From contig CAYREY010000003.1 of the NCBI GenBank assembly GCA_964423405.1, positions 3,944 through 67,943 of the forward strand: DNA of 64,000 nucleotides. The letters run 5' to 3'. The stretch is from an uncultured Chitinophaga sp. (GTDB taxonomy: Bacteria > Bacteroidota > Bacteroidia > Chitinophagales > LD1). Below are positions 12,758-31,708 of this stretch, piece by piece. How positions within the stretch are numbered: the first letter of the stretch is position 1; every line of letters starts with the position of its first letter. The notes below the pieces were generated by a model. The model was not told the DNA's origin, searched no databases, and was given only the letters and a program-made list of their open reading frames with translations. Position numbers and translations under genes: made by a program.

Positions 12758-13489
12758 CTATTTCTTAATTTTTTTTGACAACTCATGTAGAACTAACGCC
12801 AGTCTGGGGAATTTCCTTTCGATTTCCTCCATTTTCATTTGATAAGAGGGAGTTTGCGAAACCATTATCCATTCAATATTGGTGATATATTTCAATATCG
12901 CCTCCATTTTTTGATCAACTCCAGAAATTTTTTCTCGCTTAAAGAAGTCGCTGAAAATTTCACTTTTAAAATCGTTAAGGTCATATTTAAGGTTATGAAC
13001 AAAACAATTCCGAAGACGGTTAATTTCCAGCAAAAAAGGAATGATTTGAGGGTATATACCCTGTTTGGATGGCAATAACTTTACTTTATTCCAAAAAGAT
13101 AGTTTTGCTTGTGCTAAGAGATTTTCATCATCACAGACTTTAAAGTTTCCAAGTAAAATCTGATCAATCAAGTGCTCAAGGCGCAAATGGGCAATGAGTA
13201 GTTTGTTTACAAATTCGGGATTTGCTGGTTTTAGATCATCATTCAGGCGTCTTTGCTGATCTCCTAATGCCAAAATCATTTCTTGGCCACCTAATGTCAT
13301 ATCACGAAGTACGTCTTCTTCGTTCATGAGCTCTTCTACCATAAGTTTTGTAACAACATCAATACCAAGGTCGTCAAGGAAGCCTTGCCATTCATGCGGA
13401 GGTATATCACGTTTCTTTTGCTTCGCTTCTTTTAGAAAATTTCTAAAACGGTCTATATTAGCGTTATCAGGCATTGGTGAATTTTTCAT
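12758..13489 (-). CDS. HEPN-domain (RNxxxH) protein, paralog 1
   Basis: Motif EINRLRNCFVHNLKY fits Rx4H. Colinear with its neighbour paralog (LIAHLRLEHLIDQIL / KLSFWNKVKLLP). I moved the start from the TTG at 13516 to the ATG at 13489, because MKNSPMPDN aligns with the paralog's MKYPPMPNQ. Confidence 0.7.
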   Translation of the reverse strand: MKNSPMPDNANIDRFRNFLKEAKQKKRDIPPHEWQGFLDDLGIDVVTKLMVEELMNEEDVLRDMTLGGQEMILALGDQQRRLNDDLKPANPEFVNKLLIAHLRLEHLIDQILLGNFKVCDDENLLAQAKLSFWNKVKLLPSKQGIYPQIIPFLLEINRLRNCFVHNLKYDLNDFKSEIFSDFFKREKISGVDQKMEAILKYITNIEWIMVSQTPSYQMKMEEIERKFPRLALVLHELSKKIKK

Positions 13490-13513
13490 GTTAAGTTTAG
13501 GAATTTTATACTG

Positions 13514-13548
13514 CAAAACAAGCTACAAGCGATGCAACCTATTTGCAT
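13514..13548 (-). promoter_or_regulatory. palindrome + TTTG module, copy 1
   Basis: In gene orientation: ATGCAAATAGGTTGCAT-CGCTTGTAGCTTGT-TTTG. The TTTG ends about 24 nt before the ATG at 13489. Confidence 0.65.
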
Positions 13549-13599: not shown

Positions 13600-14376
13600 C
13601 TACAAATGCTTCAACCAATTTTCTATCGTTTTCCCATTGCCAAAAGATACCTGCCTAAGTATCGGATTGCTGTTCACAACGTCCTGCATTTGATCTTTAA
13701 GTGATGGCGTCTGTAGCAGCAAAATAAATTCCGCCACAGCGACAAACTTCATTATAGCCCGGAATTTGTCTTCAGGAGTGTCAGTCTTTTCGTCTTTCAA
13801 ATATTTTTTAAATCGCCTTCCTTCAAAATTCCGTATATCGAATTTTATGTTGTGCGCATATTCGTTTCTAAGAGTGTTTATTTCGTGCAGGAGGGAAATT
13901 ATCTCCTTAGATAATGGCGAATTTGTCGGCAACATTTTCAACTTCTGGTAAAAAGAAAGCTTTGCTTTGCTCAGATTATCTTCCCCTCGCTTATCCCTTA
14001 GATTGTCAGTTATTATTTTCTCAATAATGTATTCAAGCCTCAAATGCGCAATGAGAAATTCGCCGACTTGTCCTGCATTTAAAGGATTTAGTATCTCCTC
14101 CAACTTAGTGCGCTCCTTGTCAACCGTTTCGGCCAATTCAGCAACTGCCGTAAAATATTGAATTGCTCTTTTGAAGAGTCTCCCCCAATCATAGCCCTCT
14201 TCGGCCATAATCTGTTTTACTCTTTCTTTACCAAGCATATCCTCCAATTCTTTCCACTTTGGACTCGGATCATTTGACAGGCTAGATAGAGGCCTCTTTT
14301 CCTCTGTTTTGGCCTTTTGCAACAATTCCCGTAGCTCTTGTTCGGCACTTTGGTTTGGCATAGGTGGATATTTCAT
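13600..14376 (-). CDS. HEPN-domain (RNxxxH) protein, paralog 2
   Basis: Motif EINTLRNEYAHNIKF fits Rx4H. Paralogous to 12758..13489. Lies 19 nt downstream of the radical SAM gene with no palindrome between them, so it is probably co-transcribed. Confidence 0.7.
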   Translation of the reverse strand: MKYPPMPNQSAEQELRELLQKAKTEEKRPLSSLSNDPSPKWKELEDMLGKERVKQIMAEEGYDWGRLFKRAIQYFTAVAELAETVDKERTKLEEILNPLNAGQVGEFLIAHLRLEYIIEKIITDNLRDKRGEDNLSKAKLSFYQKLKMLPTNSPLSKEIISLLHEINTLRNEYAHNIKFDIRNFEGRRFKKYLKDEKTDTPEDKFRAIMKFVAVAEFILLLQTPSLKDQMQDVVNSNPILRQVSFGNGKTIENWLKHL

Positions 14377-14395: not shown

Positions 14396-15631
14396 TTAAA
14401 ACAATCTACCAGCGGGATTTAATGAGCCGGCCAACTCATGCATGGTCTGCCAATCGGCGCTACTAAACGTAGGCGAGTATGCTACATGCGGAATAGCATA
14501 TTCACCCAGCACTCCTTCGCCATACTCCGGACCTGCATGATGCTTTTGCATTTCTGTACCAGGTAAAAACATAAGGGGATAGGCTACGACATTCTTAATT
14601 CCAAGGCGGGTTACCTGGTCCACATCGTTTTTAAAAGATTTTAGAGTTTGGTTAGGTAAACCATATATAAGGCTGATACCAAACTTAATCCCTCTGTCGC
14701 GCAACGCATCTAGAGTCTTTTGGATAGCTGGGTAATTGTTTCGGCGCTTTATTACAGCATTAACCAACGGGTCGAAAGTTTGTATACCAAGTTCAATCTC
14801 CGAGCCGGTCTCTGCAATAAGATCAAGAAAACGCTCATCATTTTTGCGGCTGATAAGTTCGGGCCTAACCTGGAAATTGAAAACACCTTTCATACCAAGG
14901 CTATTGACTTGCTCAAGGTAAGGTATGTATGTATTACCCATGTTGAATACCGGATCGGTTACACTTATGCGTGTAGGAGAAAATTTATGGATGTGCTCCA
15001 GTTCTGGCAATAGGCGAGTTTCGAGGTAATAATAAACCTTGCGTTGATCAAGGTCGTGCTGAGCACAAAAGGTGCATTCATATGGGCAGCCCCTTTTAGT
15101 CTCTAACCTTATTCTGGACGTATTATTGCTTAAGGAAATAACATCAGTAATAAACGGCGAAGGTATTAGGCTAAAATCTACCCCGACCTGCGAAATGGCC
15201 GGTGCAGTACCAGTTTGGACAATTTGATACAAAGCGCTCTCAGCATAGCCCAGTATAAAATGATCTGCATCCGGGTAAAATTTCTTCAAAGTTGTTAACT
15301 CATTTACATTAACCTGGTAACCTCCAGCGATAATGGAGGCCGGAACCTTATTATCCTTTAGCCACCGCATTAACCCCAGTGATTGCTTGTGCGACCAGAT
15401 GTAACAGCTAACAGCTATAAAATCCATAGCATGCCAATCAAGCCCTATAGTCTCCCAATCTATTACGCGCAATGGGCGGCTAGCCAGATTAATAGATTTG
15501 TGATGGACTTCGTAGTCTTGTCCATACCCTGGTTGACCTTTTAAATAGGAAAGAATGGAGCCTACCGAAAAGGCTACTTCGGGTTCGTCATACCGGATAA
15601 TATCGAAGGTTACAATTGCAAGGTGTTTCAT
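14396..15631 (-). CDS. radical SAM enzyme with an N-terminal B12-binding-like domain
   Basis: CxxxCxxC cluster in KRGCPYECTFCAQ. The ~170 aa before it are flavodoxin-like (MKHLAIVTFD...IIAGGYQV), as in class B radical SAM proteins. Confidence 0.8.
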   Translation of the reverse strand: MKHLAIVTFDIIRYDEPEVAFSVGSILSYLKGQPGYGQDYEVHHKSINLASRPLRVIDWETIGLDWHAMDFIAVSCYIWSHKQSLGLMRWLKDNKVPASIIAGGYQVNVNELTTLKKFYPDADHFILGYAESALYQIVQTGTAPAISQVGVDFSLIPSPFITDVISLSNNTSRIRLETKRGCPYECTFCAQHDLDQRKVYYYLETRLLPELEHIHKFSPTRISVTDPVFNMGNTYIPYLEQVNSLGMKGVFNFQVRPELISRKNDERFLDLIAETGSEIELGIQTFDPLVNAVIKRRNNYPAIQKTLDALRDRGIKFGISLIYGLPNQTLKSFKNDVDQVTRLGIKNVVAYPLMFLPGTEMQKHHAGPEYGEGVLGEYAIPHVAYSPTFSSADWQTMHELAGSLNPAGRLF

Positions 15632-15652: not shown

Positions 15653-15687
15653 CAAAAATGAAACGACGCAATGCAACCTATTTGCAT
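15653..15687 (-). promoter_or_regulatory. palindrome + TTTG module, copy 2
   Basis: In gene orientation: ATGCAAATAGGTTGCAT-TGCGTCGTTTCATT-TTTG, 21 nt before the radical SAM ATG at 15631. Confidence 0.65.
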
Positions 15688-15696: not shown

Positions 15697-16614
15697 TTAT
15701 TTCAAATCTGGATAGTTATGGTCGATGTATTCCTTAAACCAAATTAGGACTTCGACTAAAGCAAGAACAGAACTTTGAAAAGCATATTTTGTAACTGGGT
15801 GATCGTAACGATGTGATAGCGTTTGGCAGGTATTAACTACCGAAGAAAACAACCAACTCACATGATCAGTAAAAATGGCTTTAGGCGCTACAATTTCTCC
15901 AGAGCCGAGATTAATTTTTGCTAAATCAACCTTTCTGCCGGACAAAAATAATTCTGCGGCTTTTAGGTTTAATCGCAAATTAGCTCCTGGCTTTAACAAA
16001 GCATCCGGCAAGAAAGCTCTATTGTCTATTGTATTTGCACGTTTAAGCATTTCTTCGACCAGACCACGAATAACATTGAAATTTGCCTGGCTATACGTCC
16101 GTTCTTCTAAACAGCCGAGTAAGGAAATCATTTTATCTTGCGAAGCAATAGGTAAATACCTACCACCAAATACACTGAAGGCCTCTGGATATTTAAGTTT
16201 TAGTTTCTGTTGAGGCAAATCTTCAATCAAGAATTGAAGTTTCCGCAACATAGGCTCCGCACCTTTAGCCTTATCAAAAATCAAATCACTTTCAGTTTCA
16301 GGAATTTGGTCGAAAAGACGCTCGAAATGGCCGGTGTTAATTACAAAAGGGACAAATATGTTTTGCTTTCGTAATTCCTTAATTTTTGCCACAGCAGTGT
16401 GAATGTGCTTGTCAGTTTCTTGTGGCATGTCTTCACTTAGCCATCCCCTTCCGTCTAAAATGATTCCAGAAAATTCTCTATGCCTTCGCTCCAGTTCAAT
16501 AAGGCCCTCTTCTAAACCCTGGTAGTGTTCAATCTCAAAGTTAAATCGGCTCGCGCTATCATACAACGAATCGGCCACACTCTTGTCATCATCTATTAGG
16601 AGGATTTTAATCAT
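15697..16614 (-). CDS. response-regulator receiver (REC) protein with an uncharacterised ~180-aa C-terminal domain
   Basis: N-terminal MIKILLIDDDKSVADSL ... FSGIILDGRGW ... VPFVINTGH fits the REC beta1/beta3/beta4 pattern with an acceptor Asp. Overlaps the kinase gene by 8 nt. Confidence 0.7.
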   Translation of the reverse strand: MIKILLIDDDKSVADSLYDSASRFNFEIEHYQGLEEGLIELERRHREFSGIILDGRGWLSEDMPQETDKHIHTAVAKIKELRKQNIFVPFVINTGHFERLFDQIPETESDLIFDKAKGAEPMLRKLQFLIEDLPQQKLKLKYPEAFSVFGGRYLPIASQDKMISLLGCLEERTYSQANFNVIRGLVEEMLKRANTIDNRAFLPDALLKPGANLRLNLKAAELFLSGRKVDLAKINLGSGEIVAPKAIFTDHVSWLFSSVVNTCQTLSHRYDHPVTKYAFQSSVLALVEVLIWFKEYIDHNYPDLK

Positions 16615-19438
16615 AGTTTTGATTGAAGGGCAAAGTTAAATCTAGTTGAAAATTACTATAATCCGGATGGCCAACCACAAGATTATTTCCACCATCTATC
16701 TGGCCGCCATGTAAATTTACTATCTGTTTAAGGATATACCCCCCGATTCCAGAGCCGCCTGATTCACCTGATTTTTTCCCAAACTCAAAAAAATCATCAT
16801 AAGAAAAGTCATTCTTTACGCCTTTGCCTGAATCATAATACGCAATGCCAATATTTTTATTCTTTTCCGGGTCTCCCTCAATGTATAAGTCGATAAACAA
16901 CTTATGGTCTTCAACTTTTCCATGTTTCATAGCATTTTCGACAATATTTCTGAAAAACTCCTGAATCAAGAATCTATCGATATCAACCCAAATAGGTTTC
17001 AGTCTTATACTTTCTACTGATGTGCTTCCTACGATTGCCCACTCACCATTTGTATCTAAAGCATTAATCTCAAGCGCAAAATCACGCTCAGGGAGATTAA
17101 TCTCACTTATAGTTTTTTGAATGAAAGTGACCAACTCAGTCTTCTCAAACTTTAATTCTCTTCTATTCAATTCGGTCAAACTTTTGATTTTGTCGAAAGT
17201 ATGTTCTGCAGAAAGAATACTATCATCCATTCTTGCTATCAGTTGCTCTAGGCTCCTCTTTTTAGAGATTTCCGAAGTCCAAGAAATGTTTTCTCTTGCG
17301 TCGATTGCAGAAGCCAGAAAATACTTCAAAGACTCAACATCATTCCGAATGGAACTAAATTGTTGAGAAAGACTATGACGTACTGTGGAGAGAATTGAAT
17401 ATTCACGTTTTCGGGCACCGCTTTTTTCCGCTAGCGTATCAGCTTCGCTTTGCTTTAGTCGATGTAAAATTTGAAGTTTTTCACGAATAATTTTATCCTG
17501 TTCATGAAGTGAGGGAATAGCCAAAGCAATATTCAAAAATTCGTTCACCCTCCAGGTTAGTTGCGCGGCACCAGTAAGAATATTCCTGAACTGTTTTAAG
17601 AAAAGATCCGAGCGAAATTCCTGAATTAAAAATTCAATACGAACTTTCGACTCATCAAGCGTGAATGCAAGTATATTAGGACTAATAACAATATTTCTTT
17701 CCTTGGCACTAAAAAATGTTGGCTTTAAGTTTTCGCCTATTCTCGCAACTAGTAAAACTGGTTGACTCAGATGCATTCCTTTTTGAGACCAGGTTTCCAC
17801 AGATGTTTCGGAAGCAAAAGATAATTCGAAATCACTATCAGAATTCTTCAAATCAGATATTTTAATAAAAGGCACCTTTGCATCATTCGATTCAATTTTC
17901 TCCTTAACTACCGTCAGGATCTCATTCAGCAAACAAATCTCTTTCCGCTCGCTTTTAAGTTTTTCTAATTCATGTTGGACTGGTGAAATGTATCGTTCCG
18001 GCTGAAGTATAGAATCAATTTCCAATACTTCAGACATTGTTACAACTCTTGAGTTAGAACTGTTATCAGGCTTTTCCAGCGACTCAAGAATATCCTCCGG
18101 GTGTTGAGTTATGACCTGGTTAGTTGACTCTAAAGTATACACCGAATTCAGGAAGTGTATTCGTCCCTTCTTGCTCTCTTCTTTGTTTTTATTCAGAATC
18201 AATAAATCCTGTTTAACTCCCGAATTGGATTTATCCATTCCCAAAGGCAAAGATATTACTGCCTCCACCCAATCTTTAGATACAAGTAGCTCGCGTAAAT
18301 AATAATGCGCTCCTGAGGATGCAGACAAAAGACTCTGAGGTACAACTACAAAGGCTATTCCGTTCGTCTTTAGCATAGAGGTTATCGCCTCAACGTATGC
18401 TAATTCTGCATTTTTAACACTACCTTGTAATGTTCGAAATTTAGAGTTACCTGTTGGGTCTATAATTACTCTTGAAGGTACAATACCAAATACGGCATCG
18501 TACGAGGCTTCACCGACCTCTGCCAATCTCAAGAAGTCATAGCAGAGAATCGTATTCTTGTTAGATACAAATAAATTCCTTAACTCCAGAAAAACTGCCT
18601 GTGCCTCCATATCAGTATGTAAATCAACTTGGTCTGTTGCTTTTATAGACAATTTGGATATTACGGGCGTTAGTTCAGTAAAGGCATTCAGCATTTTTCC
18701 TTGAATGTCCTTAAACTTGGCAATAGTTCCTATTAAATTCAATATGTAATCTGGAACTTGAATGCCACGGTTTGCTGACCCTTTGAGATAAAGACCTTTT
18801 ATTTTTTCGAATTCAGATAATAGCTTTGAAAGGGTTGATGTATCAAACTGATATGATTTGGTGATCACAAATGCCTCATACCAGACACTTGCATTTACGG
18901 CGTGCAATTGCATCTTAATGAATGCTTGCAGCCTTGGAGTGAGATTTCCATTTACAATCAAAGCATCAGTTAAAGAGCCTAGGCTCTGTTGAATTTCATT
19001 AGCATTAGCGTGTTCTACTTCAGCTAGCCTTAAGGCCAGTGTATTAGAACTACCACTTTCCCTCTGCTGCTCGGCAGAGAACCGTTTAGACATCGCAAAT
19101 AAAAATTTCACATAACAGGTCCAAAGACACAACTCAATTGTCAGTATACCCTCGCCCGCATGCTTAGACCGGGAAAACAAATTGAAGAGATCAGAAGTCA
19201 ATCTTTGATAATCATCGCTTCCTTCTGTAAGATTGGCTCTTAACTCATATAAATTTGAAATTTTATTCTGGAATAATTGCGGATAATTTTTGATTCGTGC
19301 ATGAATTTGTGAAGTAGGAACAGGCTTCCCATCCTTTCTCACATATAATTTTAACGCGTTAATCCTTTCCGCAATATCTTTTGCGTTGGAAATCTTCTTA
19401 GTCTTTAAAACTTCTACTATTGCTTCGTGTAATGTCAT
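16607..19438 (-). CDS. fusion protein: winged-HTH-like N-terminus, degenerate HsdM-like methylase fold, HsdS-like TRD, then histidine kinase (H-box + HATPase_c)
   Basis: Colinear with the HsdM in this window, but the catalytic motifs are replaced: DPSAGSG becomes NAFTELT, and NPPF becomes GIVPS. It retains FVVVPQSLLSASSG...VISLPLGM...LLILNK. The TRD-like region ends in IPSLHEQDKIIREKLQIL. The kinase part has STVRHSLSQQ, N-box FRNIVENAMKHG, YYDSGKGV, and GGSGIGGYILKQIVNLHGGQI. Confidence 0.7.
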   Translation of the reverse strand: MTLHEAIVEVLKTKKISNAKDIAERINALKLYVRKDGKPVPTSQIHARIKNYPQLFQNKISNLYELRANLTEGSDDYQRLTSDLFNLFSRSKHAGEGILTIELCLWTCYVKFLFAMSKRFSAEQQRESGSSNTLALRLAEVEHANANEIQQSLGSLTDALIVNGNLTPRLQAFIKMQLHAVNASVWYEAFVITKSYQFDTSTLSKLLSEFEKIKGLYLKGSANRGIQVPDYILNLIGTIAKFKDIQGKMLNAFTELTPVISKLSIKATDQVDLHTDMEAQAVFLELRNLFVSNKNTILCYDFLRLAEVGEASYDAVFGIVPSRVIIDPTGNSKFRTLQGSVKNAELAYVEAITSMLKTNGIAFVVVPQSLLSASSGAHYYLRELLVSKDWVEAVISLPLGMDKSNSGVKQDLLILNKNKEESKKGRIHFLNSVYTLESTNQVITQHPEDILESLEKPDNSSNSRVVTMSEVLEIDSILQPERYISPVQHELEKLKSERKEICLLNEILTVVKEKIESNDAKVPFIKISDLKNSDSDFELSFASETSVETWSQKGMHLSQPVLLVARIGENLKPTFFSAKERNIVISPNILAFTLDESKVRIEFLIQEFRSDLFLKQFRNILTGAAQLTWRVNEFLNIALAIPSLHEQDKIIREKLQILHRLKQSEADTLAEKSGARKREYSILSTVRHSLSQQFSSIRNDVESLKYFLASAIDARENISWTSEISKKRSLEQLIARMDDSILSAEHTFDKIKSLTELNRRELKFEKTELVTFIQKTISEINLPERDFALEINALDTNGEWAIVGSTSVESIRLKPIWVDIDRFLIQEFFRNIVENAMKHGKVEDHKLFIDLYIEGDPEKNKNIGIAYYDSGKGVKNDFSYDDFFEFGKKSGESGGSGIGGYILKQIVNLHGGQIDGGNNLVVGHPDYSNFQLDLTLPFNQNYD

Positions 19439-19504: not shown

Positions 19505-19539
19505 CAAATAAAAGCACTCTCAATGCAATCTATTTGCAT
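19505..19539 (-). promoter_or_regulatory. palindrome + TTTG module, copy 3
   Basis: In gene orientation: ATGCAAATAGATTGCAT-TGAGAGTGCTTTTA-TTTG, upstream of the kinase/REC pair (ATG at 19438). Confidence 0.65.
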
Positions 19540-19540: not shown

Positions 19541-19978
19541 TTAGAAAGGCGCATTATCAAAAAGTGAAAATTGCTGATCGACCTCCACGCGAATTGTCTT
19601 CTCAGGAACCGGCACATCATTGATAAAATTAACGCATTCGTAAATGTCAGCTATTTTATCCCCATCCAATTGAAACAATAAATCCATATAATGACCCTGT
19701 TCACCAAGGAAGGTAAGTCCCCGACAGCCCTTGCTGCAACCTGAGCAACTACCCTTATGTAAAGTAAGATTTTTATCCCCTGCCTTCTCAAATTGCTCAA
19801 ATGCCTTAATTAGTTTGCTTACAAATAGATACTTAGGGAAATCCTGGTAAGTCCTCTCCACGTCGAGAAATGAACTAACCATTTCAATATCTAGGCGAGC
19901 TATAAAATAGACTATCGCCTCATATTGATTTCGCGGTTTCGCTATATATTCTTGTTCCGAAAATAGTTGAAGTTGCAT
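19541..19978 (-). CDS. hypothetical Cys-rich protein, partner of the SF1 helicase
   Basis: 145-aa ORF lying 9 nt downstream of the helicase gene, with the cysteine cluster GSCSGCSKGCRG. No recognisable family. Confidence 0.55.
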   Translation of the reverse strand: MQLQLFSEQEYIAKPRNQYEAIVYFIARLDIEMVSSFLDVERTYQDFPKYLFVSKLIKAFEQFEKAGDKNLTLHKGSCSGCSKGCRGLTFLGEQGHYMDLLFQLDGDKIADIYECVNFINDVPVPEKTIRVEVDQQFSLFDNAPF

Positions 19979-21363: not shown

Positions 21364-21398
21364 CAAACATCGAGACACCCGATGCAATCTATTTGCAT
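21364..21398 (-). promoter_or_regulatory. palindrome + TTTG module, copy 4, in the divergent helicase / WYL-regulator intergenic region
   Basis: In minus orientation: ATGCAAATAGATTGCAT-CGGGTGTCTCGATG-TTTG, 23 nt before the helicase ATG at 21340. On the plus strand the palindrome reads ...TCTATTTGCAT and ends 12 nt before the WYL gene ATG at 21411. TCTATTTG resembles a TAnnTTTG -7 box. Confidence 0.65.
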
Positions 21399-22455: not shown

Positions 22456-22461
22456 TATCAC

Positions 22462-22732: not shown

Positions 22733-22740
22733 TTTTAATC

Positions 22741-25497
22741 ATGAGACCCGAAAACGAGCAAATTCTTTTTATTAAAAATGCTTTTCAAAATATGAAAAGC
22801 CCTGAAGACTTCCTTAAACTGCTAAATTATGCCAAACCCATAATTTACGGTATTAAGTCAGTGCCTTTCGGAATAAAACATCTTCGTTTTCATTCTAATC
22901 CGAAAGCCAACAGAAGAAGGTACGTTAGTTTTTCAATTCCCAAAAAAGCGGGTGGAATTAGAACCATACATGCGCCTAATAAGGGATTAAAATCAGTTTT
23001 GAAGTGCCTAAACATGATTCTTCAATGCGTTTACGAACCTCATAAAGCAGCTACCGGGTTCGTTTTAGATAAGTCGATTGTCACTAACGCCAAGCAGCAT
23101 ACCGGTAGTCTATACGTTTATAATATCGATTTGAAGGATTTCTTTCCAAGCGTGGACCAGGCAAGATTCTGGGGCCGTTTAAAGTATCATCCCTTTAACC
23201 TCAATGAGGAAAACAACCGTCTTGATATCGCTAACATAATAGGAGGCTTATGTTTTCAGGAAATGGAGGTAGAGCGAATCGAAGAAAATGGCAATTGGGT
23301 GAAAGTTGTGAAGAACGTTTTGCCTCAAGGAGCACCAACCTCCCCAACGATTACCAATATTATTTGCGAACGGCTTGACTTCTATTTAAGCGCAGTAGCC
23401 CGGCGTTTTGGCCTTAAATATTCTCGTTATGCCGATGATATTACTTTTTCTTCTATGCACAACGTTTATCATAAAGACGGGGACTTTATAAAGGAATTGC
23501 ATAGAATAATTGCGACGCAAGGCTTTCACATTAAAGAAAGCAAAGTACGCTTACAACGACCGGGCTACCGCCAGGAAGTAACCGGACTGATTGTGAATGA
23601 AAAAGTCAATGTAACGAAACGATACATAAAACGGTTGAGAATGTGCCTTTATCTATGGGAGCATTATGGCTATATAAAAGCAGAACAAATTTTCATTAAA
23701 GATTATATCGGAGATAAGGGCCATCTTATAAAAAGCAAGCCCAATATGGCCAACGTTATTTGGGGGAAACTGGAGTACTTGAAGATGGTAAAAGGCACGA
23801 AAGACAAAGTATATCTAGGGTTGTCAAGCCGGTTCTCGAAGTTAACCGAAACAAATGTTCCAGCAAAAGAAACAACTGATTTTAAAGAGGTAGAGAAAGC
23901 GAACATTCCCGATACCGTAAGTAAAATAGGCGATCCTCAAAAAGCGGAATGGATTACACCAGAAGAATATGGAAAGGTACTAACGCTTATTAAAGCCGAG
24001 GAAGCAGTAAAAATGGAGTATCAAAAGAGCTTTGAACAGGTTTACAATTTAACTGAAGGTAATTATCAGTATTTTAAAAAGAGTGGAGAACTGATTGCAA
24101 CAATGAATATTGAAATCTTAGACCAAAGACTTGTAGTCAATAAGTTTCAATTAAGTGATTTAGAAGGTCTTCCAGATTCAGTTAAAACTGCTCAGAATTT
24201 TGAGGAAAGATTAAATAGCCAGGTGTTGTGTCCTAATCGAGGTTTAATAAACAACAAGGCGATTGTTGAGTTGGCTATATTGGAAAATTTCGGAAACGCT
24301 TTTGCCGGAATTTTTAGGAAAATTGAAGAACCCGCGAATCCAACAAACTCAAAAATCAAGGTACTAATTATTCATACTGATAAAAGGACAGATACGTTAA
24401 GAAAAGATATTACCCTCCGCAAGGGAACACTTGTCCCTTATGAAGGGGAATTGGAAAATTCCGTTGAATCCAGCTTGAGTCAGCAACACAATCCTCTCAA
24501 TACGTTGAATGTTTTGAAACTGTTTCACGACAACAATAGCTATTTAAAATACACAACTCACAGTTGGGAATTTGGAATTGACGAATCAGATGACAATTAC
24601 TATAACTATAGGAATTACAGCGATTTTATTGGTAAGGCATTAGGCCAATGGAATAAAATCAAAAGAAAATACAAAAAATGGAATGCTGTTGACAAAAAGT
24701 TTGACTACACTATCCCGCCAAGCCTTTGGGAAAAAATAGAATTATTTCTCCTTTCAACCGATTTTAAACGACTCGGAAAAGATGGACACTTAGCTAAACC
24801 TGTTGGCTGGGGCAAACACCATGTTCAATTTGGTTGGTCCAGCATTGAATTATCTGAATGGGCAAAGTCCAATCCCAACGAAAATCCATTAAAATTTCCT
24901 TTACCCACCGAAAAGCAACTCGAGATTAACGGAAGAAAACTATACAGTTTTAAAGATATAACTATACTTTTTAAAAGCGAGATTGAGTTTAGAGAAGATA
25001 CAAATCATTTTTACAATTTAATTCTTCGTTTATGGGAGGACGTTTGGCATTTCGATATTAAATTAAATTCCGAAGAACTTGAAAAACTTAAGGGAGTTTC
25101 ATTGTTCACCGAAACTCAAAGAATTGAATCTGGTCTTAATAAAATTTTTGAGTCGTTTATCCAAGGTGGACGAACTACTTTCAACGAAGCGATAATACAG
25201 CGGAGTGATATCTTAATTGATCCTTATACAAATCCATATCAAGAAATTAGAATTACTCAAGTAGGTAGTTTTAGCGTTAGAAACCCCAAGGACTCTAACC
25301 TAGACGGCAACTCTGGTGATTTTGTAGACATCAAAAGATTATTCAACAGCCTATGTGATTGGTCAGTTGAATCTAAATTTGGTGACGGAAAAGCATATAG
25401 GTTAAGTTATCTTGACATTGCGAACGGGCCTTTTATTGAAGAAATCGATGTGTCTTCTGTAAGAGGATTTACTCATGTTTTAAAATTTTACCTATGA
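22741..25497 (+). CDS. retron-type reverse transcriptase with a ~580-aa C-terminal extension
   Basis: NAxxH (VTNAKQHTG), NIDLKDFFPSV, LPQGAPTSPTITNIICERLD, SRYADDITFSS (YADD), RQEVTGLIVNEK (VTG). At 918 aa it is far longer than the usual 300-400 aa retron RT. Confidence 0.85.
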   Translation: MRPENEQILFIKNAFQNMKSPEDFLKLLNYAKPIIYGIKSVPFGIKHLRFHSNPKANRRRYVSFSIPKKAGGIRTIHAPNKGLKSVLKCLNMILQCVYEPHKAATGFVLDKSIVTNAKQHTGSLYVYNIDLKDFFPSVDQARFWGRLKYHPFNLNEENNRLDIANIIGGLCFQEMEVERIEENGNWVKVVKNVLPQGAPTSPTITNIICERLDFYLSAVARRFGLKYSRYADDITFSSMHNVYHKDGDFIKELHRIIATQGFHIKESKVRLQRPGYRQEVTGLIVNEKVNVTKRYIKRLRMCLYLWEHYGYIKAEQIFIKDYIGDKGHLIKSKPNMANVIWGKLEYLKMVKGTKDKVYLGLSSRFSKLTETNVPAKETTDFKEVEKANIPDTVSKIGDPQKAEWITPEEYGKVLTLIKAEEAVKMEYQKSFEQVYNLTEGNYQYFKKSGELIATMNIEILDQRLVVNKFQLSDLEGLPDSVKTAQNFEERLNSQVLCPNRGLINNKAIVELAILENFGNAFAGIFRKIEEPANPTNSKIKVLIIHTDKRTDTLRKDITLRKGTLVPYEGELENSVESSLSQQHNPLNTLNVLKLFHDNNSYLKYTTHSWEFGIDESDDNYYNYRNYSDFIGKALGQWNKIKRKYKKWNAVDKKFDYTIPPSLWEKIELFLLSTDFKRLGKDGHLAKPVGWGKHHVQFGWSSIELSEWAKSNPNENPLKFPLPTEKQLEINGRKLYSFKDITILFKSEIEFREDTNHFYNLILRLWEDVWHFDIKLNSEELEKLKGVSLFTETQRIESGLNKIFESFIQGGRTTFNEAIIQRSDILIDPYTNPYQEIRITQVGSFSVRNPKDSNLDGNSGDFVDIKRLFNSLCDWSVESKFGDGKAYRLSYLDIANGPFIEEIDVSSVRGFTHVLKFYL

Positions 25498-26180
25498 AAA
25501 CGATTGCTCTAATAGATGATCGAAAATCCAGACAAGAAATTTATAGTGAAAGCATTGTTCAGGCACTTGCTCATTCCAACTTGGACAACATTCAAGGATC
25601 ACGGTTGATAGGGTTTAACGACAACATGAATAAACTGGAAACCTCAATTTTTGACAACTACAAGGTTATTATTATTCACAGATCCTTTCTTTTGCAATCT
25701 TACAGACTTGCTTTAAAAGATTATATCGAAAAGACGGAAAAGTACTTGGTGTTATTTTCTGGTGGAACTCCGGCAACGGTATTAAATGACAGAGTGCTTT
25801 CTATCAATTCCAAGGATTTATACTCGCATAAACTATATACATTTTTAGAAAATTCAATCAATAGCAGCATACCTAATCTACAGATTCTTGCGTTTGGAGC
25901 GAGATGGAAATTAAACTTACTCTACGGGTTGGTGGATAAAATTCAGAATTATCTAGCTCAAAATGCAGAAAAAAATGTCCCCATAAGCGTCATTAAACAG
26001 CATGTGGGGTATACATCATCTTTCCGCGATTTTTTCCCAAATAGCAAAGTCTTAGCGGAGTTTGAATCCATTTCCTCTGGAGAGATAATCAATAGCAACA
26101 AACAACTTTCCTTGATATTAAATGAATTGACACTAATTATTAATATCGAAATTCAATCAGATGAAACCTTTACTAATTGA
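25494..26180 (+). CDS. receiver-like (degenerate REC) protein
   Basis: MKTIALIDDRKS ... YKVIIIHRSFL ... YLVLFSGGTP follows the REC strand pattern, but His sits where the acceptor Asp would be. 4-nt overlap with the RT gene. Confidence 0.55.
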   Translation: MKTIALIDDRKSRQEIYSESIVQALAHSNLDNIQGSRLIGFNDNMNKLETSIFDNYKVIIIHRSFLLQSYRLALKDYIEKTEKYLVLFSGGTPATVLNDRVLSINSKDLYSHKLYTFLENSINSSIPNLQILAFGARWKLNLLYGLVDKIQNYLAQNAEKNVPISVIKQHVGYTSSFRDFFPNSKVLAEFESISSGEIINSNKQLSLILNELTLIINIEIQSDETFTN

Positions 26181-27870
26181 TTCGACAGATAGTAGGTACG
26201 GCGGCTTACTAAAATGGGAAAACAGCGTTTCTATTGGCTACAAGTATCCTGAAGAATCGGATTTAAAGGGCGATTTTTCAAATATTGATACTTTTATTAG
26301 CAATGGTCCCGCCAGCATTATTTCGCAGATAGCTTCCTGCGATTTCGAATACTACATCATTCCGCTTTCCTTAACGAATACATTATTAGATTTTTCCGGA
26401 ATTAGGCTGGCACAACATATAAGACTCACTAAGAGCCTAGAGGAAAAAAGATTGTTTCCTATAATTTTTGTTAGCTGGATTAATCCAATGCACGTCATCA
26501 AATTAGCTGAAGCAGGAGAAATAATTACTGCATCAGGTAATTATTTCTGCAAACCAACTAGAGATGCAATTGAGAATGCAATTAGCATGGGATTATTGCC
26601 CTGTAAGCAGGCTACTGATAAAATTAAAATCTCAATTCATAACCAATCAAACTCTCACCATTCCATAGCCAATGAGTGGTCGATTCTTACTCTATCGCAA
26701 TCGCTAGGCATCAGCGAAAAATTAAAAGAAACAACAGATTACTTCGAGGCTCAATTATATTTTAAATATCTGTTAACCAATTTTGACAACAATGTAAATA
26801 CGCCTCGCAACATTCCGCAATTGAATCGCACTGGAGAGAAGAAGAGGATCCTTTATATTGACGATGAATACAAAAAGGGCTGGGAGGAAATATTTGGTGC
26901 TTTTTTCTCAGGTCAGTCGAATATTAACTTTAAGTGTTTTGAGCCAACTAAGGATTTTACGGACTTTGAAACTTCGGACGACCTCATCGTTGAAATCGTC
27001 AAATTTGTAAGAAATTTTGACCCGGACATTGTTCTTCTTGATTTGCGATTGCATGACCAAGACTTCGAGCCAAACAGAGCAGCAAATGAAATGACCGGAT
27101 TAAAAATCCTCAAGGAAATTAAGGATAAGATTAATCCTGGCATCCAAATTATTGTCATTACTGCTTCAAATAAAGTTTGGAACTTAATCGAACTTCAAAA
27201 TTCAGGAATGGACTTTTTTGTTCTAAAAAATTCACCTGAAATAAATTCGGGTACTCAATCTATTGACCATTTTTTTTATCAATTTCAGGAAGTCTTAGAA
27301 CAAGCTTTCAAGAAATCATTCATTAAGGGATTAATATCTTCCTTATTAAAAATCAAAACGAAACTGTCAATAGTAAATGAGCCTGAAAATCCAGAATATA
27401 ACAAGCTGATTGCTTATTTGAAATCCCAAATCAATGTAGGAATCTCAATGCTGGGTCTAATTAATCCTCAAAAATCAGTTACGCTTGATATTGCCTTCTT
27501 AACATTTTATAATTTTCTTGAAAGTTTTAAAGGATACTATTTGCAGTATGACAAAAGCGACTACCGATATTATTTAGGCTTTGACAAAATTATAGTTCAT
27601 AGATACTCTTATGACAAAGGTCTGAAAGATGATGGGGAATTTGTTGCGAAGGATACATATGACAAACCTAGTTGGAGTTGCTTTCTAACTGCTCTTTTTT
27701 TCGATTATTTTAAGGTTATAAAAAGCCCTTACCAAGAAGCTGGTTCATTGAAGCAACTACAAAAATGGCGAAATGATTATATCCACTCAACCAAACGATT
27801 TTTCGACAAAAGTGAATTGACAATAATAATCTCTATTTGCGTAAGGGCATGTGACGCTATAAAAGAGTGA
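26161..27870 (+). CDS. multi-domain protein: degenerate receiver-like N-terminus, canonical REC domain, and C-terminal HEPN-like domain
   Basis: REC: KRILYIDDEYKKGW ... PDIVLLDLRLHD ... QIIVITASNK ... FFVLK. C-terminus: LQKWRNDYIHSTK fits Rx4H. 20-nt overlap with the upstream gene. Confidence 0.65.
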   Translation: MKPLLIDSTDSRYGGLLKWENSVSIGYKYPEESDLKGDFSNIDTFISNGPASIISQIASCDFEYYIIPLSLTNTLLDFSGIRLAQHIRLTKSLEEKRLFPIIFVSWINPMHVIKLAEAGEIITASGNYFCKPTRDAIENAISMGLLPCKQATDKIKISIHNQSNSHHSIANEWSILTLSQSLGISEKLKETTDYFEAQLYFKYLLTNFDNNVNTPRNIPQLNRTGEKKRILYIDDEYKKGWEEIFGAFFSGQSNINFKCFEPTKDFTDFETSDDLIVEIVKFVRNFDPDIVLLDLRLHDQDFEPNRAANEMTGLKILKEIKDKINPGIQIIVITASNKVWNLIELQNSGMDFFVLKNSPEINSGTQSIDHFFYQFQEVLEQAFKKSFIKGLISSLLKIKTKLSIVNEPENPEYNKLIAYLKSQINVGISMLGLINPQKSVTLDIAFLTFYNFLESFKGYYLQYDKSDYRYYLGFDKIIVHRYSYDKGLKDDGEFVAKDTYDKPSWSCFLTALFFDYFKVIKSPYQEAGSLKQLQKWRNDYIHSTKRFFDKSELTIIISICVRACDAIKE

Positions 27871-27871
27871 A

Positions 27872-27906
27872 ATGCAAATAGATTGCACTGAATTAATGTT
27901 TGTTTG
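27872..27906 (+). promoter_or_regulatory. palindrome + TTTG module, copy 6
   Basis: ATGCAAATAGATTGCAC-TGAATTAATGTTTG-TTTG, starting 1 nt after the stop at 27870 and ending 18 nt before the ATG at 27925. Confidence 0.65.
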
Positions 27907-27924
27907 TCAAAATTTTATGTCCTT

Positions 27925-30129
27925 ATGGATATCTTAAACTTCTTTCCTGATATTAATCTCTCCAGCGACCAAAAAGTCGCATTGGGAAAACTGGAGACAT
28001 TTCTTTCAGGGAACAGCCATGTGTTCATGCTAAAAGGTTACGCCGGAAGCGGCAAGACAACCATCCTTAAAGGCCTGGTAGATTATTTAATCTCCATTGA
28101 AAGACCTGTCTGTTTGATGGCACCCACAGGAAGAGCGGCTAAAGTAATCCGCGAAAAAACCGGAGAGGAAGCTTATACGATTCACAAGTGTATTTACAAC
28201 TACAATGCACTGGTAGAAGTTGAGGCAAAAAATGAAAATGAGGAAACCAGCTTCTATTACGCTTACAAGATTCGTAACAGCGACGATGTTGCCAACAAGA
28301 TATTTATTGTTGATGAGTCTTCAATGATTTCTGACACATTTAGCCAGGGCGAATTTTTTAGATTTGGAACAGGCCATCTGCTTGCTGATCTGATTCAATA
28401 TTCCCGCGTTAAAGAATTAACCAGTAATACCAAAATTATCTTTGTTGGTGATCCGGCGCAGTTACCGCCGGTTGGCGACAATTCATCAAAGGCCTTTGAC
28501 AAAACTTATCTGGCTGAGAAATTCGGCTTAATGTCCGAGGATGTAGAAATGAAAGAAGTTAAAAGATATGGCAGTGAAAGCGGCATTATGAGAGTCGCAG
28601 CAAGATTACGTAAGTCACTTACCTCTGGATACTTTAATAACTTTAATCTCAAACCAAATGAAGTTGACATCTTAAACCCTTCATACGAGGAGTTCCTGGG
28701 CATATATGGCAAAGTCAATGAGAGAAAAATAATCGTTGCATACAAAAATGAAACCTGTAAGGAATTGAATGCCGAAATACGGGAACTAAAGTACGGTTCC
28801 AAAGAACTTCCCATGCAAAAGGGAGACATTGTAATAATAGGGGCCAACAACTACAGAAAAGATATAATGAACGGTGAGTTCGCCGTGGTGAATGAGGTAG
28901 ACTCGGTTTCTACAGACCGTGAAATACCTTTGCGCGGAAAAAAACCGGTACTGTTGAAATGGAGAAATGTTGAATTGGTTTTTCCAGATGGAGAGACAAG
29001 CGGGAAAGTAGTAAGTGGTAAAATGCTGGACAATTTTCTGATAGGAGAAAATTTCCTTAAACCCGAGGAGATGCAGGCCATCTATGTAGATTTTAAGAAC
29101 AGGCATCCCAACCTAAAACCAAAAACCGATGAATTTAAAGACGCCATCATAAATGACCCATATTTCAATCCTATAATGCTGAAATATGGTTATGCCGTGA
29201 CCTGTCACAAGGCACAAGGCGGTGAATGGCCTCATGTCTTTACCATTTGGGACCATGATTTGCGGGAAGGTTATGATTGTTTCCATGACCCGCAAGGCAA
29301 ATCGGGCAAAACCAATCAAAATTTTTACAGATGGTCTTATACTGCTGTAACCAGAGCATCTGAAAAGTTATACGCAATAAACCCACCGCATTTCAACTCG
29401 TACTCCACTATGGCTTTTACAGATGAAGCTGTATTGAAGAGTTTAACGGAATTAACTGGGGCAAATCATCAGCCACAGGAAATAGAATTAGATGATTCAA
29501 TCCTATTAAGTCTTAACAAATATGGGTTGCTTGAGCAGAATTTGGCTATACAGGATCATTTTATAAAGGTAATGAACATGGTCTGCCAAAACAATATTGA
29601 AGTAATCGGTTGGGAAAAAGTAGTATACGAGGTTAGATACTATTTTAAGCGGGAAGCGAATACTGCCGCCGTGAAAACCTGGATAGATGGGAATAGCAAA
29701 TTCAACGGAAAATTTCTGGAAATCCCAGCAGGAACCAATTCAAAAGAGCTTGTGAAGGAAATCGCAACTCTCATTTCTGCATTGCCGAATGTTTCTATTA
29801 AAAGGAACTCATCTGAAACAATTATCACTAAATTAGAATTTGATGCGGAAGTAGAAGAAAAACTACCGTTTACACGAACTCTTTTTGAAGATATATCGGA
29901 AGCAATTGCTGAGTATGGAATATCCATTGAAGAAATAAATCATCAGCAATATAAAGAACGTTATACGTTTGTCAGAAATGGCGAGAAAGCCGAAATTGAT
30001 TTTGAATATAATCAACAGGGCTTCTTCGGCAGGGTAATGCCCTTGACTAAAAAATGCAACAGCGAAATTTTACTTTTAGATATTAAAGTAGCTGTTCAAA
30101 AACTTAAACAAGAAGCATATGCCGGCTAA
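27925..30129 (+). CDS. RecD/Pif1/TraA-like SF1 helicase with a ~240-aa C-terminal extension
   Basis: GYAGSGKTTILKGL, IFIVDESSMISD, VGDPAQLPPVG, YAVTCHKAQGGEWPHVF, YTAVTRASEKLYA. The C-terminal part contains two similar ~100-aa modules (IEVIGWEKVVYEVRYYFKRE... / ISIEEINHQQYKERYTFVRN...). I start it at the ATG at 27925, because MDILNFF parallels the other helicase's ISILDFLHF. The track uses the TTG at 27904. Confidence 0.85.
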   Translation: MDILNFFPDINLSSDQKVALGKLETFLSGNSHVFMLKGYAGSGKTTILKGLVDYLISIERPVCLMAPTGRAAKVIREKTGEEAYTIHKCIYNYNALVEVEAKNENEETSFYYAYKIRNSDDVANKIFIVDESSMISDTFSQGEFFRFGTGHLLADLIQYSRVKELTSNTKIIFVGDPAQLPPVGDNSSKAFDKTYLAEKFGLMSEDVEMKEVKRYGSESGIMRVAARLRKSLTSGYFNNFNLKPNEVDILNPSYEEFLGIYGKVNERKIIVAYKNETCKELNAEIRELKYGSKELPMQKGDIVIIGANNYRKDIMNGEFAVVNEVDSVSTDREIPLRGKKPVLLKWRNVELVFPDGETSGKVVSGKMLDNFLIGENFLKPEEMQAIYVDFKNRHPNLKPKTDEFKDAIINDPYFNPIMLKYGYAVTCHKAQGGEWPHVFTIWDHDLREGYDCFHDPQGKSGKTNQNFYRWSYTAVTRASEKLYAINPPHFNSYSTMAFTDEAVLKSLTELTGANHQPQEIELDDSILLSLNKYGLLEQNLAIQDHFIKVMNMVCQNNIEVIGWEKVVYEVRYYFKREANTAAVKTWIDGNSKFNGKFLEIPAGTNSKELVKEIATLISALPNVSIKRNSSETIITKLEFDAEVEEKLPFTRTLFEDISEAIAEYGISIEEINHQQYKERYTFVRNGEKAEIDFEYNQQGFFGRVMPLTKKCNSEILLLDIKVAVQKLKQEAYAG

Positions 30130-31708
30130 AGAGATAAAAGAATTACGAAAGTCAGGGAAACTCGACGAAGCCTATGCGCTTGCAATTAAGGAATTTGACG
30201 AGGCAAATGTGCCCACGCAAATTGTTAATTCGAAAAATGGTGAAACGATTAACGTAGAGCCAAACCTACTTTGGCAAAAGAGAAATTTAAGCTGGGTCTA
30301 CTACGATTATATAAAGTTAAGCTGCGAACCAGCAAAGTTTGAGGATTTCAAAACCAACCTCAAGAAAATAGTTGAGCTTAACTTACCGGAAGATGAAAAA
30401 ATTCTTTTTGATCAGCTTGCCTGGCAGATTGGCAAAATGCTTTTTGCTATAGGATTTAAGCAGCCAAAATTTGGTGAAGCCGTTTTTCAACCGGATTCTA
30501 ATCGAGTTCATGCAGACGAACTATTCGAAATTGCAAAGAAACTGTCCTTCACAAAGCTTTCAGAAGCATATAGTTTTCTTTTCAAGGCTTTTCATACAGC
30601 GTTTAAGCTTTCCCAACAATACGTTCAATTTGTAGATTGGTGGGGTCTTGAAAATTTTCGAAAAGAAGATTTTGAAAAAGAAAAATTACCGAATGGTAAA
30701 GATGTAATGTCTATCGCTGAACAGGCCTACATAGCCTATGCAAAGCATTTGTTACCCGAGAAGTCGAGCAGTTCTCAATTGGTAAATCCGGACAAAATAA
30801 AGGAGTTTATACCCAAGCTCGATAAAGTAATTGACGATCACCCAGAATTTCAATACCCTCCCTATTTTAAGGCCAAGCTACTTCTTGCTCTCGGTGATAA
30901 GGAACACATGCTATCAGCCTTGCTTCCCTTTGCAAGGAAAAAAATGAATGACTTTTGGGTATGGGAAGTTTTAAGTGAAGCAGTTAGTGCTGAGGACCAA
31001 ATTCTATCCTGCTATTGCCGGGCATTACTATGCAGAACCCAAGAAGAGTTTTTAATCGGCATCCGACAAAGAATAGCAGCCTTGCTTATTAGAAAAGAAC
31101 TTTATTCAGAGGCAAAAAATGAAATAGAATTACTAGTAGCCGCAAGAACCGAGAAAAACTTTAAAATTCCCGCGCCGGTTTCAAATTGGATGCAACAGGA
31201 TTGGTTTAAGAACGCTGCTGCCGCAGACAATAACACAGAATTTTACAAAAGGCATCAGGATGCCGCTGAAGGATTATTATTCTCAGATTATCCGGAAGAG
31301 GAAATTGTGGTTGATTTTGTAAATACGGACAAAAAAATATTAAACTTCGTTTCGACGGATGAACGCTCAGGTTTTTTTAAATATGATCGTTTCGCAACAG
31401 ATGTAAATATTGGAGACGTATTGAATGTTCGTTTCAAAGAAAAGAAACCAGAGGGGTTGCAGCAAATTTATTCGGTCTCCAAATCCACAGTACCTGGCGC
31501 TGCCGGTTCTTTATTGAAAACGATTTCCGGCAAAGTAAGAATTGGGGAGGGGAAGAACTTTGGGTTTGTTGAAAATGTATACATCCACCCAGCAACTATA
31601 AAAACTTTGAATCTCTCCAACGGACTTCAAATAAAAGGCACTGCGTTGAAGACCTATAACTCAGAGAAAAAAGAGTGGGGCTGGAAGTTATTTAAGGTCG
31701 AACCCTAA
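30119..31708 (+). CDS. helical-repeat protein with C-terminal cold-shock/S1-like OB-fold(s)
   Basis: C-terminus GKVRIGEGKNFGFVENVYIHPATIK...LQIKGTALKTYN resembles the CSD pattern (GFGFI...vFvH). A second, weaker OB-like segment comes just before it (SGFFKYDRFATDVNIGDVLNVRF). 11-nt overlap with the helicase gene. Confidence 0.55.
   Translation: MPAKEIKELRKSGKLDEAYALAIKEFDEANVPTQIVNSKNGETINVEPNLLWQKRNLSWVYYDYIKLSCEPAKFEDFKTNLKKIVELNLPEDEKILFDQLAWQIGKMLFAIGFKQPKFGEAVFQPDSNRVHADELFEIAKKLSFTKLSEAYSFLFKAFHTAFKLSQQYVQFVDWWGLENFRKEDFEKEKLPNGKDVMSIAEQAYIAYAKHLLPEKSSSSQLVNPDKIKEFIPKLDKVIDDHPEFQYPPYFKAKLLLALGDKEHMLSALLPFARKKMNDFWVWEVLSEAVSAEDQILSCYCRALLCRTQEEFLIGIRQRIAALLIRKELYSEAKNEIELLVAARTEKNFKIPAPVSNWMQQDWFKNAAAADNNTEFYKRHQDAAEGLLFSDYPEEEIVVDFVNTDKKILNFVSTDERSGFFKYDRFATDVNIGDVLNVRFKEKKPEGLQQIYSVSKSTVPGAAGSLLKTISGKVRIGEGKNFGFVENVYIHPATIKTLNLSNGLQIKGTALKTYNSEKKEWGWKLFKVEP

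Follow-up and report, generated by a model that had tools for sequence, protein, structure and literature searches.

The window analysed here is a stretch of 64,000 nucleotides from an uncultured Chitinophaga sp., and our subject is the block of signalling and defence genes at positions 12758..31708. We think it probable that this island contains two self-contained kinase-receiver modules, coupled transcriptionally by a WYL regulator and a repeated promoter motif, and not a single kinase with scattered receivers. The latter had been proposed in an earlier note on this DNA. Module A consists of a methylase-kinase (16607..19438) and its adjoining receiver (15697..16614); module B is a retron operon (22460..27870) in which the reverse transcriptase (RT) bears a kinase-family domain of its own and is followed by two receiver-like proteins. 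In all, the open reading frames of the window gave a map of 13 genes in six transcription units across the block, and independent database gene calls on this contig match this map. The closest genome match to the window is a metagenome-assembled genome (MAG) of the Chitinophagales. Further loci (L-numbers) were compared with flanks of 10 kb, and the observations below concern domain content, conserved residues, gene linkage, independent distribution, cassette replacement and the distribution of the motif.

The claim that the block has one clear histidine kinase does not survive a domain search. Residues 582-917 of the reverse transcriptase encoded at 22741..25497 (+) belong to the Pfam family HisKin-conflict (PF22561; E-value 1.4e-51, 176 bits against a cut-off of 27), so that there are two kinase-type proteins in the block. 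The earlier note had hedged that the C-terminus of the RT might supply a kinase to the retron operon, and this hedge was borne out, with the kinase label resting on Pfam membership. A profile of the HisKin-conflict family searched against 1.84 billion representatives returned 790 cluster representatives. In the members examined the domain is always C-terminal, behind variable sensor-type domains, an arrangement that fits a signalling module. Of the 151 top-ranking members about 41 have the domain by itself and 35 join it to a retron-type RT. N-terminal ankyrin repeats are present in 48 of the 62 long non-RT members scanned, and a few have BRCT, LRR or Endonuclease_NS domains, so that the form fused to a retron RT is in the minority within a broader sensor-kinase-like family. 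An alignment of 158 members shows 90-99% conservation of K603, H607, R751, S843, G859 and the C-terminal motifs CDWS.ES and GF.H.L.FY, with H607 at 99%.

The remainder of the operon is that of a retron. The RT domain (RVT_1, residues ~60-380) is best matched by retron RT models (PADLOC up to 2.7e-96), and the NCBIfam models Retron_TIR (2.2e-78), Ec67 and St85 also match, all three below their full-length cut-offs. The 276 nt between a copy of the promoter motif and the RT start contain a non-coding RNA region of the msr-msd type (22460..22735, +) bounded by terminal inverted repeats (22469-22479 and 22716-22726). Its long-range pairing and stems are conserved in five loci, and 10 pairs show compensatory changes; Rfam at gathering thresholds gave no match anywhere in the window, this region included. 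We regard 22460..27870 as a retron, with multicopy single-stranded DNA (msDNA) as its predicted product. The three genes of module B are tightly packed, the RT gene overlapping that of the 228-residue pseudo-receiver (25494..26180, +) by 4 nt and the latter overlapping the gene of the effector (26161..27870, +) by 20 nt.

The effector protein is composed of an iREC domain (Pfam 6.8e-18), a REC domain (Response_reg, 3.2e-7) and a C-terminal domain with a HEPN motif. As the earlier note had read it, the acceptor pocket of the REC domain is intact: D234, D235, D294, T334 and K356 are present in all three sequences compared. At the C-terminus a HEPN-type motif (R537-x4-H542) is invariant in three otherwise divergent C-termini; this region of 26161..27870 has no Pfam match, and the HEPN label is based on the motif. 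When this end (27230-27870) is compared with its counterpart in L006 (11743-12407) the identity is 22%, against 68% for the rest of the protein, and the R-x4-H motif alone is retained; the effector end thus appears to vary on its own. Of the three proteins that the earlier note had listed as having receiver or receiver-like domains, 15697..16614 and 26161..27870 were upheld, and 25494..26180 can be called receiver-like only. Its predicted fold is CheY-like (AlphaFold2, AF2; mean predicted local distance difference test, pLDDT, 73.5), with weak Foldseek matches, and its family retains D9-R10, S89-G90-G91 and N105-S106-K107. The position of the acceptor aspartate is occupied by H62-R63-S64, invariantly in all five family members compared, which makes it a pseudo-receiver. 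Profile comparison with hhalign found no similarity between the family of 25494..26180 and the iREC-REC protein. The module A receiver family was aligned to the REC domain of 26161..27870 in the correct register, at a non-significant score.

Module A is closer to textbook two-component signalling. The protein encoded at 16607..19438 (−) has a HARE-HTH-like N-terminus, a degenerate N6-methylase (N6_Mtase), a target-recognition domain resembling a type I specificity (S) region, a DHp domain with His688 and a catalytic ATP-binding domain (HATPase_c, 6.7e-9), as assigned from Pfam, PADLOC, NCBIfam and alignment. Its best NCBIfam matches are the sensor kinases CpxA, WalK, PmrB, KdpD and EnvZ. Thirteen sequences share, without exception, the H-box His688, the N-box residues N835/H839 and the G-box residues G871, G897 and G899, and in the window the G boxes read DSGKG and GSGIGG. 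By sequence it is a canonical histidine-kinase-type protein, as the earlier note had proposed. The methylase part fares differently: a deletion has removed motif I, and VPS stands in place of NPPF at motif IV in the window and in the closest relatives, while several distant relatives retain DPFxGxxG and (D/S/H)PPF. Neither the motif I that binds S-adenosylmethionine (SAM) nor the catalytic motif IV expected of an active N6-adenine methylase is thus found in 16607..19438, and with both lost the protein is better called a DNA reader than an enzyme. It looks like a DNA-reading sensor paired with the adjoining receiver, in agreement with the DNA-sensing kinase of the earlier note.

The receiver (15697..16614, −; 305 aa) consists of an N-terminal REC domain and an all-helical C-terminal output domain, and the start of its gene overlaps the kinase gene by 8 nt. 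Pfam has no match for it, and single-sequence searches of Pfam (E up to 10) and of the PDB sequences with this protein and with 25494..26180 gave nothing useful; for this reason a family profile was needed. A profile of 14 sequences matches response-regulator structures (3a0r_B, E 9.5e-6), nearly all of its 33 hits being receiver domains. All of these sequences have D54 and K115, nearly all have D8/D9, and T or S is found at position 94 (T94 in the window). The top Foldseek matches of a low-confidence AF2 model are also receiver domains, with weak E-values, and the C-terminal 170 residues are confidently predicted to form a helical domain. Module A hence has the kinase boxes, the receiver acceptor set and the conserved gene adjacency by which a two-component system is recognized. 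The close relatives L001, L002 and L004 also have two flanking genes that are missing from the window, one for DUF2130 ahead of the methylase-kinase and one for a REase-ARP nuclease behind the receiver.

The two modules occur apart from each other. A near-full-length homologue turned up at 13 loci in a metagenome scan with the methylase-kinase family, and at 12 of these a homologue of the receiver follows directly, often with the same 8-nt overlap, as it also does in L001-L005. None of these 12 metagenomic loci contains an RT-HisKin protein, the pseudo-receiver, an iREC-REC protein, the 450-aa helicase or the TOTE pair of the island. The company kept by the methylase-kinase is of another kind: among the 13 loci scanned a WYL gene is adjacent in six, DUF2130 is present in five, and HsdM of one clade lies directly downstream of the kinase/receiver pair in eight, with HsdS and HsdR next in four. 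In one locus (L010, 19023-20042) a SMODS (second-messenger nucleotidyltransferase) gene comes after the type I restriction genes. Conversely, L006-L009 and L070 have RT-HisKin, a protein of ~227-230 aa, iREC-REC and the TOTE pair together in one block, with no methylase-kinase or 450-aa helicase within 10 kb upstream. L071 is likewise colinear for RT(-)HisKin, the small protein (~210-230 aa across all these contexts) and the iREC protein, without module A. On an 18.9-kb contig (P0009) from a more distant genome, RT and HisKin are encoded by two neighbouring genes, after which come a 208-aa protein, the iREC protein and a giant helicase that replaces TOTE; the gene list of this contig has no methylase-kinase.

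In L001-L005 the island has stayed intact as a whole, and even there the retron may change. In L004 and L005 the same frame and non-coding RNA are present and module A is kept, and the RT is a protein of 424 aa without kinase or receivers. An unrelated 268-aa protein follows this RT in place of the receivers (1433-2707 and 646-1452), which looks like a swap of the effector module on one retron scaffold. The earlier note had proposed that the units may form one network and suggested neighbourhood conservation as a check on it; units are in fact found without one another and in different groupings, the outcome that the note itself had said would tell against a network. The retron operon, moreover, has its own kinase-family domain, and the proposal of one kinase serving several receivers is not supported.

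How the modules have been replaced in otherwise similar islands points the same way. The window and L001, a Chitinophagales relative, share 90-93% DNA identity over 14916-15686, 19493-23795 and 27869-31699, and there is no alignment over 15687-19492, the module A genes, or over 23796-27868, which encodes HisKin, the pseudo-receiver and the iREC-REC-HEPN protein. At the protein level the RT is 92% and the two TOTE proteins are 94% and 92% identical, against 28% for HisKin, 35% for the pseudo-receiver and 38% for iREC-REC, and the module A proteins are 25% and 24.5% identical. Compared with L006 the corresponding values are 85% (RT), 62% (HisKin), 63% (pseudo-receiver), 68% (iREC-REC) and 80% and 65% (TOTE). 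In both modules the kinase thus varies in step with its own receivers and independently of everything else. That a kinase and its own receivers change as a block is the pattern expected of cognate pairs.

What ties the island together is most readily seen in its promoters. The 15-mer TGCAAATAGRTTGCA occurs six times in the window, four times exactly and twice with one mismatch, with (−)-strand copies at 13533, 15672, 19524 and 21383 and (+)-strand copies at 22422 and 27873. All six copies are intergenic, lie just upstream of a unit and are oriented toward it; the shared motif behind the promoter/operator of the earlier note is real. Motif search places TGCAAATAGGTTGCA upstream of unit 1 (13533..13547, −) and of unit 2 (15672..15686, −) and TGCAAATAGATTGCA upstream of module A (19524..19538, −). 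A further copy (21383..21397, −) is found in the 70-bp gap that separates the divergent unit 4 helicase and WYL genes, at a distance of 13 nt from the start codon of the latter, and the last two precede the retron non-coding RNA (22422..22436, +) and the TOTE pair (27873..27887, +). The six units have a common promoter layout, in which AAATGCAAATAGRTTGCA is followed by 12 nt, an nnnnTTTG box and then the start codon or the retron RNA, and the core of the motif is an inverted repeat, TGCAA-N5-TTGCA. The copies surround the gene of a WYL-WCX transcription regulator of 335 aa (21411..22418, +; Pfam WYL 2.5e-11 and WCX 7.9e-9, PADLOC WYL 3.6e-27).

The motif is not confined to the window. L001 has it six times, against 0.18 expected by chance, and the layout in L001, L002 and L004 is like that of the window. 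A relaxed pattern, GC[AG]AA.A...TGCA, is found eight times in the 13 distant methylase-kinase loci (0.65 expected). In four cases (L013, L015, L018, L027) the related motif precedes the methylase-kinase start by 53-71 nt, with the orientation and the downstream TTTG box seen in the window, and a fifth copy (L012) precedes the gene before the methylase-kinase, just after WYL. A WYL gene accompanies the related motif in L013, L015, L027 and L012; the L018 contig examined has none. WYL homologues, 25-35% identical, adjoin the methylase-kinase genes in six distant loci, and the sequence of the motif drifts with the divergence of the WYL protein (TGCAAATAGGCTGCA, TGCGAATACATTGCA, TGCAAACACACTGCA). 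As the related motifs keep their position beside diverged WYL genes, TGCAAATAGRTTGCA is probably the WYL operator, a prediction from the pattern of its occurrence. The motif probably belonged to module A ancestrally, and in this lineage the remaining five units have come to share it by its spread. Co-regulation of the six units, which the earlier note had also put forward, is very probable given the copies around the WYL gene and the related motifs beside WYL genes in distant loci. In L013 a second operator-like copy (7319) precedes the next unit, which includes a 38% identical homologue of 12758..13489 (8659-9435); since this homologue lies near the methylase-kinase pair, HEPN proteins may be habitual companions of module A.

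Could the methylase-kinase nevertheless be the only kinase and phosphorylate all three receiver proteins across the six operons, as a branched phosphorelay? Clearly canonical kinase motifs are found in 16607..19438 only, the REC domain of 26161..27870 has an intact acceptor pocket, one promoter motif is common to all units, and the whole island stays together in L001-L005. Against this, the RT has its own kinase-family domain, intact-pocket iREC-REC proteins accompany RT-HisKin with no methylase-kinase within 10 kb, and 12 loci have the methylase-kinase/receiver pair without the retron receivers. In addition, replacement has coupled each kinase to its own receivers only, and one of the three "receivers" has lost the acceptor aspartate. 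We therefore give the branched scheme hardly any chance of being right. A more serious competitor would have HisKin-conflict inactive as a kinase and serving as a scaffold on the RT, with the receivers of the retron operon acting as phosphorylation-independent ligand or nucleotide switches or as adaptors. Several findings favour it and at the same time weigh on the two-module reading: no conserved N-box Asn or canonical G1 box was seen in the 158 HisKin-conflict members, the family profile matched no solved kinase among the PDB sequences, and hhalign detected no similarity to the kinase region of the neighbouring module A. Of the three receiver-fold domains of the retron operon, moreover, two are inactive, and kinase-independent receiver switches in conflict systems have been proposed by the Aravind group (PMC8195603). 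The scaffold has more difficulty with the curation of PF22561 as a histidine kinase by Pfam, with the near-invariance of H607, with the co-variation of HisKin-conflict and the receivers in the manner of cognate kinase-regulator pairs, and with the complete acceptor set that the REC domain of 26161..27870 has kept in three sequences, which is hard to explain without phosphorylation. On balance we think it unlikely, though more probable than the branched scheme. The RT C-terminus is accordingly best described as a putative kinase, a label drawn from Pfam curation and genomic coupling to receivers.

The repeated motif might also be mainly a recombination site or cassette boundary, by which units are swapped through homologous recombination, and not the binding site of a regulator. 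The replacement between the window and L001 does end at or near motif copies (15686, ~19493, 27869), and the motif travels with units into contexts without WYL nearby (L006-L009). However, its distance to the TTTG box and the start codon is fixed, its orientation always follows the downstream gene, it has an inverted-repeat core, and one replacement boundary lies inside the RT gene, away from any motif. The diverged motifs also keep their position upstream of the methylase-kinase beside diverged WYL genes, as a co-evolving operator would. A role primarily in recombination thus seems improbable, and an integron-like site, which we also considered, ranks low. The reading of two modules under one WYL regulator has further difficulties of its own. 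In L006-L009, which makes WYL binding less certain, the motif stands upstream of the retron and TOTE, and no WYL gene is found within 10 kb upstream or in the downstream flanks examined; in L070 neither motif nor WYL was found. The same 10-kb flanks leave room for a distant partner kinase elsewhere in those genomes. As His583, in an HNP motif, is conserved at only ~50-75% while His607 is at 99%, the acceptor residue of HisKin-conflict is uncertain. The receiver-like character of 25494..26180 derives from weak fold matches, and no known relative of the module A output domain was found. Finally, with DUF2130 and REase-ARP absent from the window and the methylase motifs lost, module A could be decaying here, and it may be a reduced version.

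The working scheme that we favour can be described as follows; phosphotransfer, the triggers, the effector activities and WYL binding are what we infer from the comparisons above. The WYL protein would bind the shared motif and set the expression of all six units, the coupling between them being transcriptional. In module A the catalytically dead DNA methylase and the target-recognition domain would be the input of a cytoplasmic sensor kinase that reads DNA sequence or modification state. Autophosphorylation at His688 would be followed by transfer to Asp54 of the overlapping receiver, switching the helical output domain. The module may serve type I restriction and is probably a sensing or control add-on to it. 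In module B the non-coding RNA or msDNA together with the RT would be the phage sensor. From there the HisKin-conflict domain on the RT would signal to Asp294 of the iREC-REC-HEPN protein and so set free a HEPN RNase, with abortive infection as the outcome. The pseudo-receiver may be an adaptor or a brake, and the TOTE helicase pair is a usual companion of module B with its own promoter. The most complete version of this scheme combines a phosphorelay-gated retron, a dead-methylase sensor kinase of DNA state that tunes or backs up type I restriction, a WYL regulon of six units with an operator spread from the methylase-kinase system, and block replacement as the mark of an arms race in which phages inhibit signalling. 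Taken as a whole this remains tentative, and we hold it to be possible only.

The other units of the block are defence-related as well. Unit 1 (12758..13489, −) encodes a HEPN-motif protein of 243 aa from the ATG at 13489, as also called in the database; the longest open reading frame extends to 13516, Pfam has no match, and the motif LRNCFVHN (R-x4-H) was read directly. It is a paralogue of the second gene of unit 2 (13600..14376, −), both having the HEPN-type motif LRNxxxHN; the latter, with LRNEYAHN, is HEPN/DUF4145-like, given a weak Pfam match to DUF4145 (7e-4). The first gene of unit 2 (14396..15631, −) encodes a B12-binding radical SAM protein (Pfam Radical_SAM 1.6e-17; PADLOC candidate PDC-M51A, 3.4e-85). 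Unit 4 begins with a superfamily 1 (SF1) helicase (19988..21340, −; Pfam AAA_19/AAA_30/PIF1), a paralogue of the TOTE helicase without the TBP-like domains (PADLOC PDC-M16A 2.7e-89, profile positions 10-481 of 721); it is 29% identical to the TOTE helicase 27904..30129. The second gene (19541..19978, −) encodes a 145-aa protein with a cysteine cluster (CSGCSKGC) and no family match. This protein and the 450-aa helicase (19541-21340) are kept as a pair beside the WYL gene in L001-L005. The TOTE pair at the other end of the block comprises a helicase with two TBP-like domains (27925..30129, +; Pfam TBP-TOTE 1.5e-36, PADLOC PDC-M16A 1.4e-266) and a partner with DUF7017 and two S1/cold-shock-like domains (30119..31708, +; DUF7017 1.2e-47, S1CSD-TOTE-1/2, PDC-M16B 1.2e-203). 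The helicase likely starts at the ATG at 27925; the longest open reading frame begins at 27904, and homologues begin at residue 8.

Directly downstream of the block and on the same strand are the type I restriction-modification genes (6578..12595, −), with HsdR at 9512..12595, HsdM at 7890..9518 and HsdS at 6578..7897. Beyond them, at 1883-4917 (−), an AAA_15/AAA_21 ATPase (687 aa) and an HNH protein (324 aa) correspond to the PADLOC candidate PDC-M62 A/B (4e-47 and 9e-48), a pair that is distantly Septu-like (PtuA/PtuB). With both systems directly downstream, positions 1.9-31.7 kb make up a defence island. Outside it, a cluster of four large-protein genes at 38445-49787 (−; 1331, 578, 1155 and 700 aa) may be another uncharacterised conflict system; a Tubulin_2 domain (1.4e-45) lies at the N-terminus of its 1155-aa protein, the remaining proteins are essentially without a Pfam match, and PADLOC matches none of the four. 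As regards the searches, word-indexed protein searches yielded few relatives (4, 3 and 2 hits), and a single-protein scan of genome contigs gave one locus only. A scan of the window for sigma-70 promoters and terminators showed no enrichment over shuffles, with a model that is ill-suited to Bacteroidota promoters.

Most of what the earlier note observed holds, but the one-kinase network should not be carried forward; we regard the region as a moderately novel pair of signalling-type defence modules. For retrons, an RT fused to a kinase-family domain together with a receiver-gated HEPN effector offers a switch for the step from sensing to effector that is testable by point mutation (H607, D294). 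A dead-methylase sensor kinase travelling with type I restriction and WYL would, if true, represent a novel type of regulatory layer above restriction. One operator spread over six defence units shows an island becoming a single regulon without a signalling link between its systems. Should the arms-race interpretation be correct, whole-block replacement of kinase and receivers in a frame that is 90-93% identical would reflect phage inhibitors of the signalling step.

Several known systems resemble parts of the island. Our literature search found no paper on a kinase-fused retron, nor one on a kinase that is fused to a methylase and associated with type I restriction. Module B is closest to the effector-fused retrons (PADLOC types XI, RT-protease, XII, RT-TIR, and I-C, RT-Toprim; NCBIfam Retron_TIR_antiphage and the Ec67 family), whose RT models match best and with which it shares a structured non-coding RNA upstream and effector genes in the operon. 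It differs in that the RT is fused to a histidine-kinase-family module instead of an effector, and in that the HEPN-motif effector sits behind two or three receiver-fold domains. The TOTE conflict system (TPR, OB, TBP, Effector) is named in a passage of PMC12458937 that cites Aravind, Iyer and Burroughs 2022. The proteins 27925..30129 and 30119..31708 match PDC-M16A/B end to end, with TBP-TOTE, S1CSD-TOTE-1/2 and DUF7017. In the window, L001, L006 and L070 this pair directly follows the retron kinase/receiver operon, and the window has nearby a second helicase paralogue without the TBP domains.

Module A resembles classical two-component systems in its H-box His, its N, G1 and G2 boxes, the complete acceptor set of its receiver and the overlap of the two genes. 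Its input, however, is a dead DNA methylase with a target-recognition domain where a membrane or PAS sensor would be usual, its output is a helical domain and not a known DNA-binding domain, and its neighbours are restriction genes. Two-component-like pairs linked to restriction-modification systems have been described as Response_reg_2/HEF_HK (Bellieny-Rabelo et al. 2021, PMC8011034). Like module A these are adjacent kinase-like and receiver-like genes enriched beside restriction-modification genes, but they have a MORC-type HATPase_c_3 and are found mostly with type II systems and C5 methylases (PMC8011034), whereas module A has a canonical kinase fused to an N6-methylase-like reader beside type I systems. 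We tried module A as a member of these families and rejected it, as neither PF19191 nor PF19192 matched even at E up to 10. Response_reg_2/HEF_HK is the nearest published analogue of module A, from different families.

BrxR and CapW are WYL regulators that are encoded beside defence operons and act through inverted-repeat motifs in promoters. The arrangement in the window is alike in that a WYL-WCX gene lies beside defence operons and an inverted-repeat motif is present in their promoters as well as next to the WYL gene itself. It differs from BrxR and CapW in that copies of a single predicted operator stand in front of six separate units, which belong to different types of defence.

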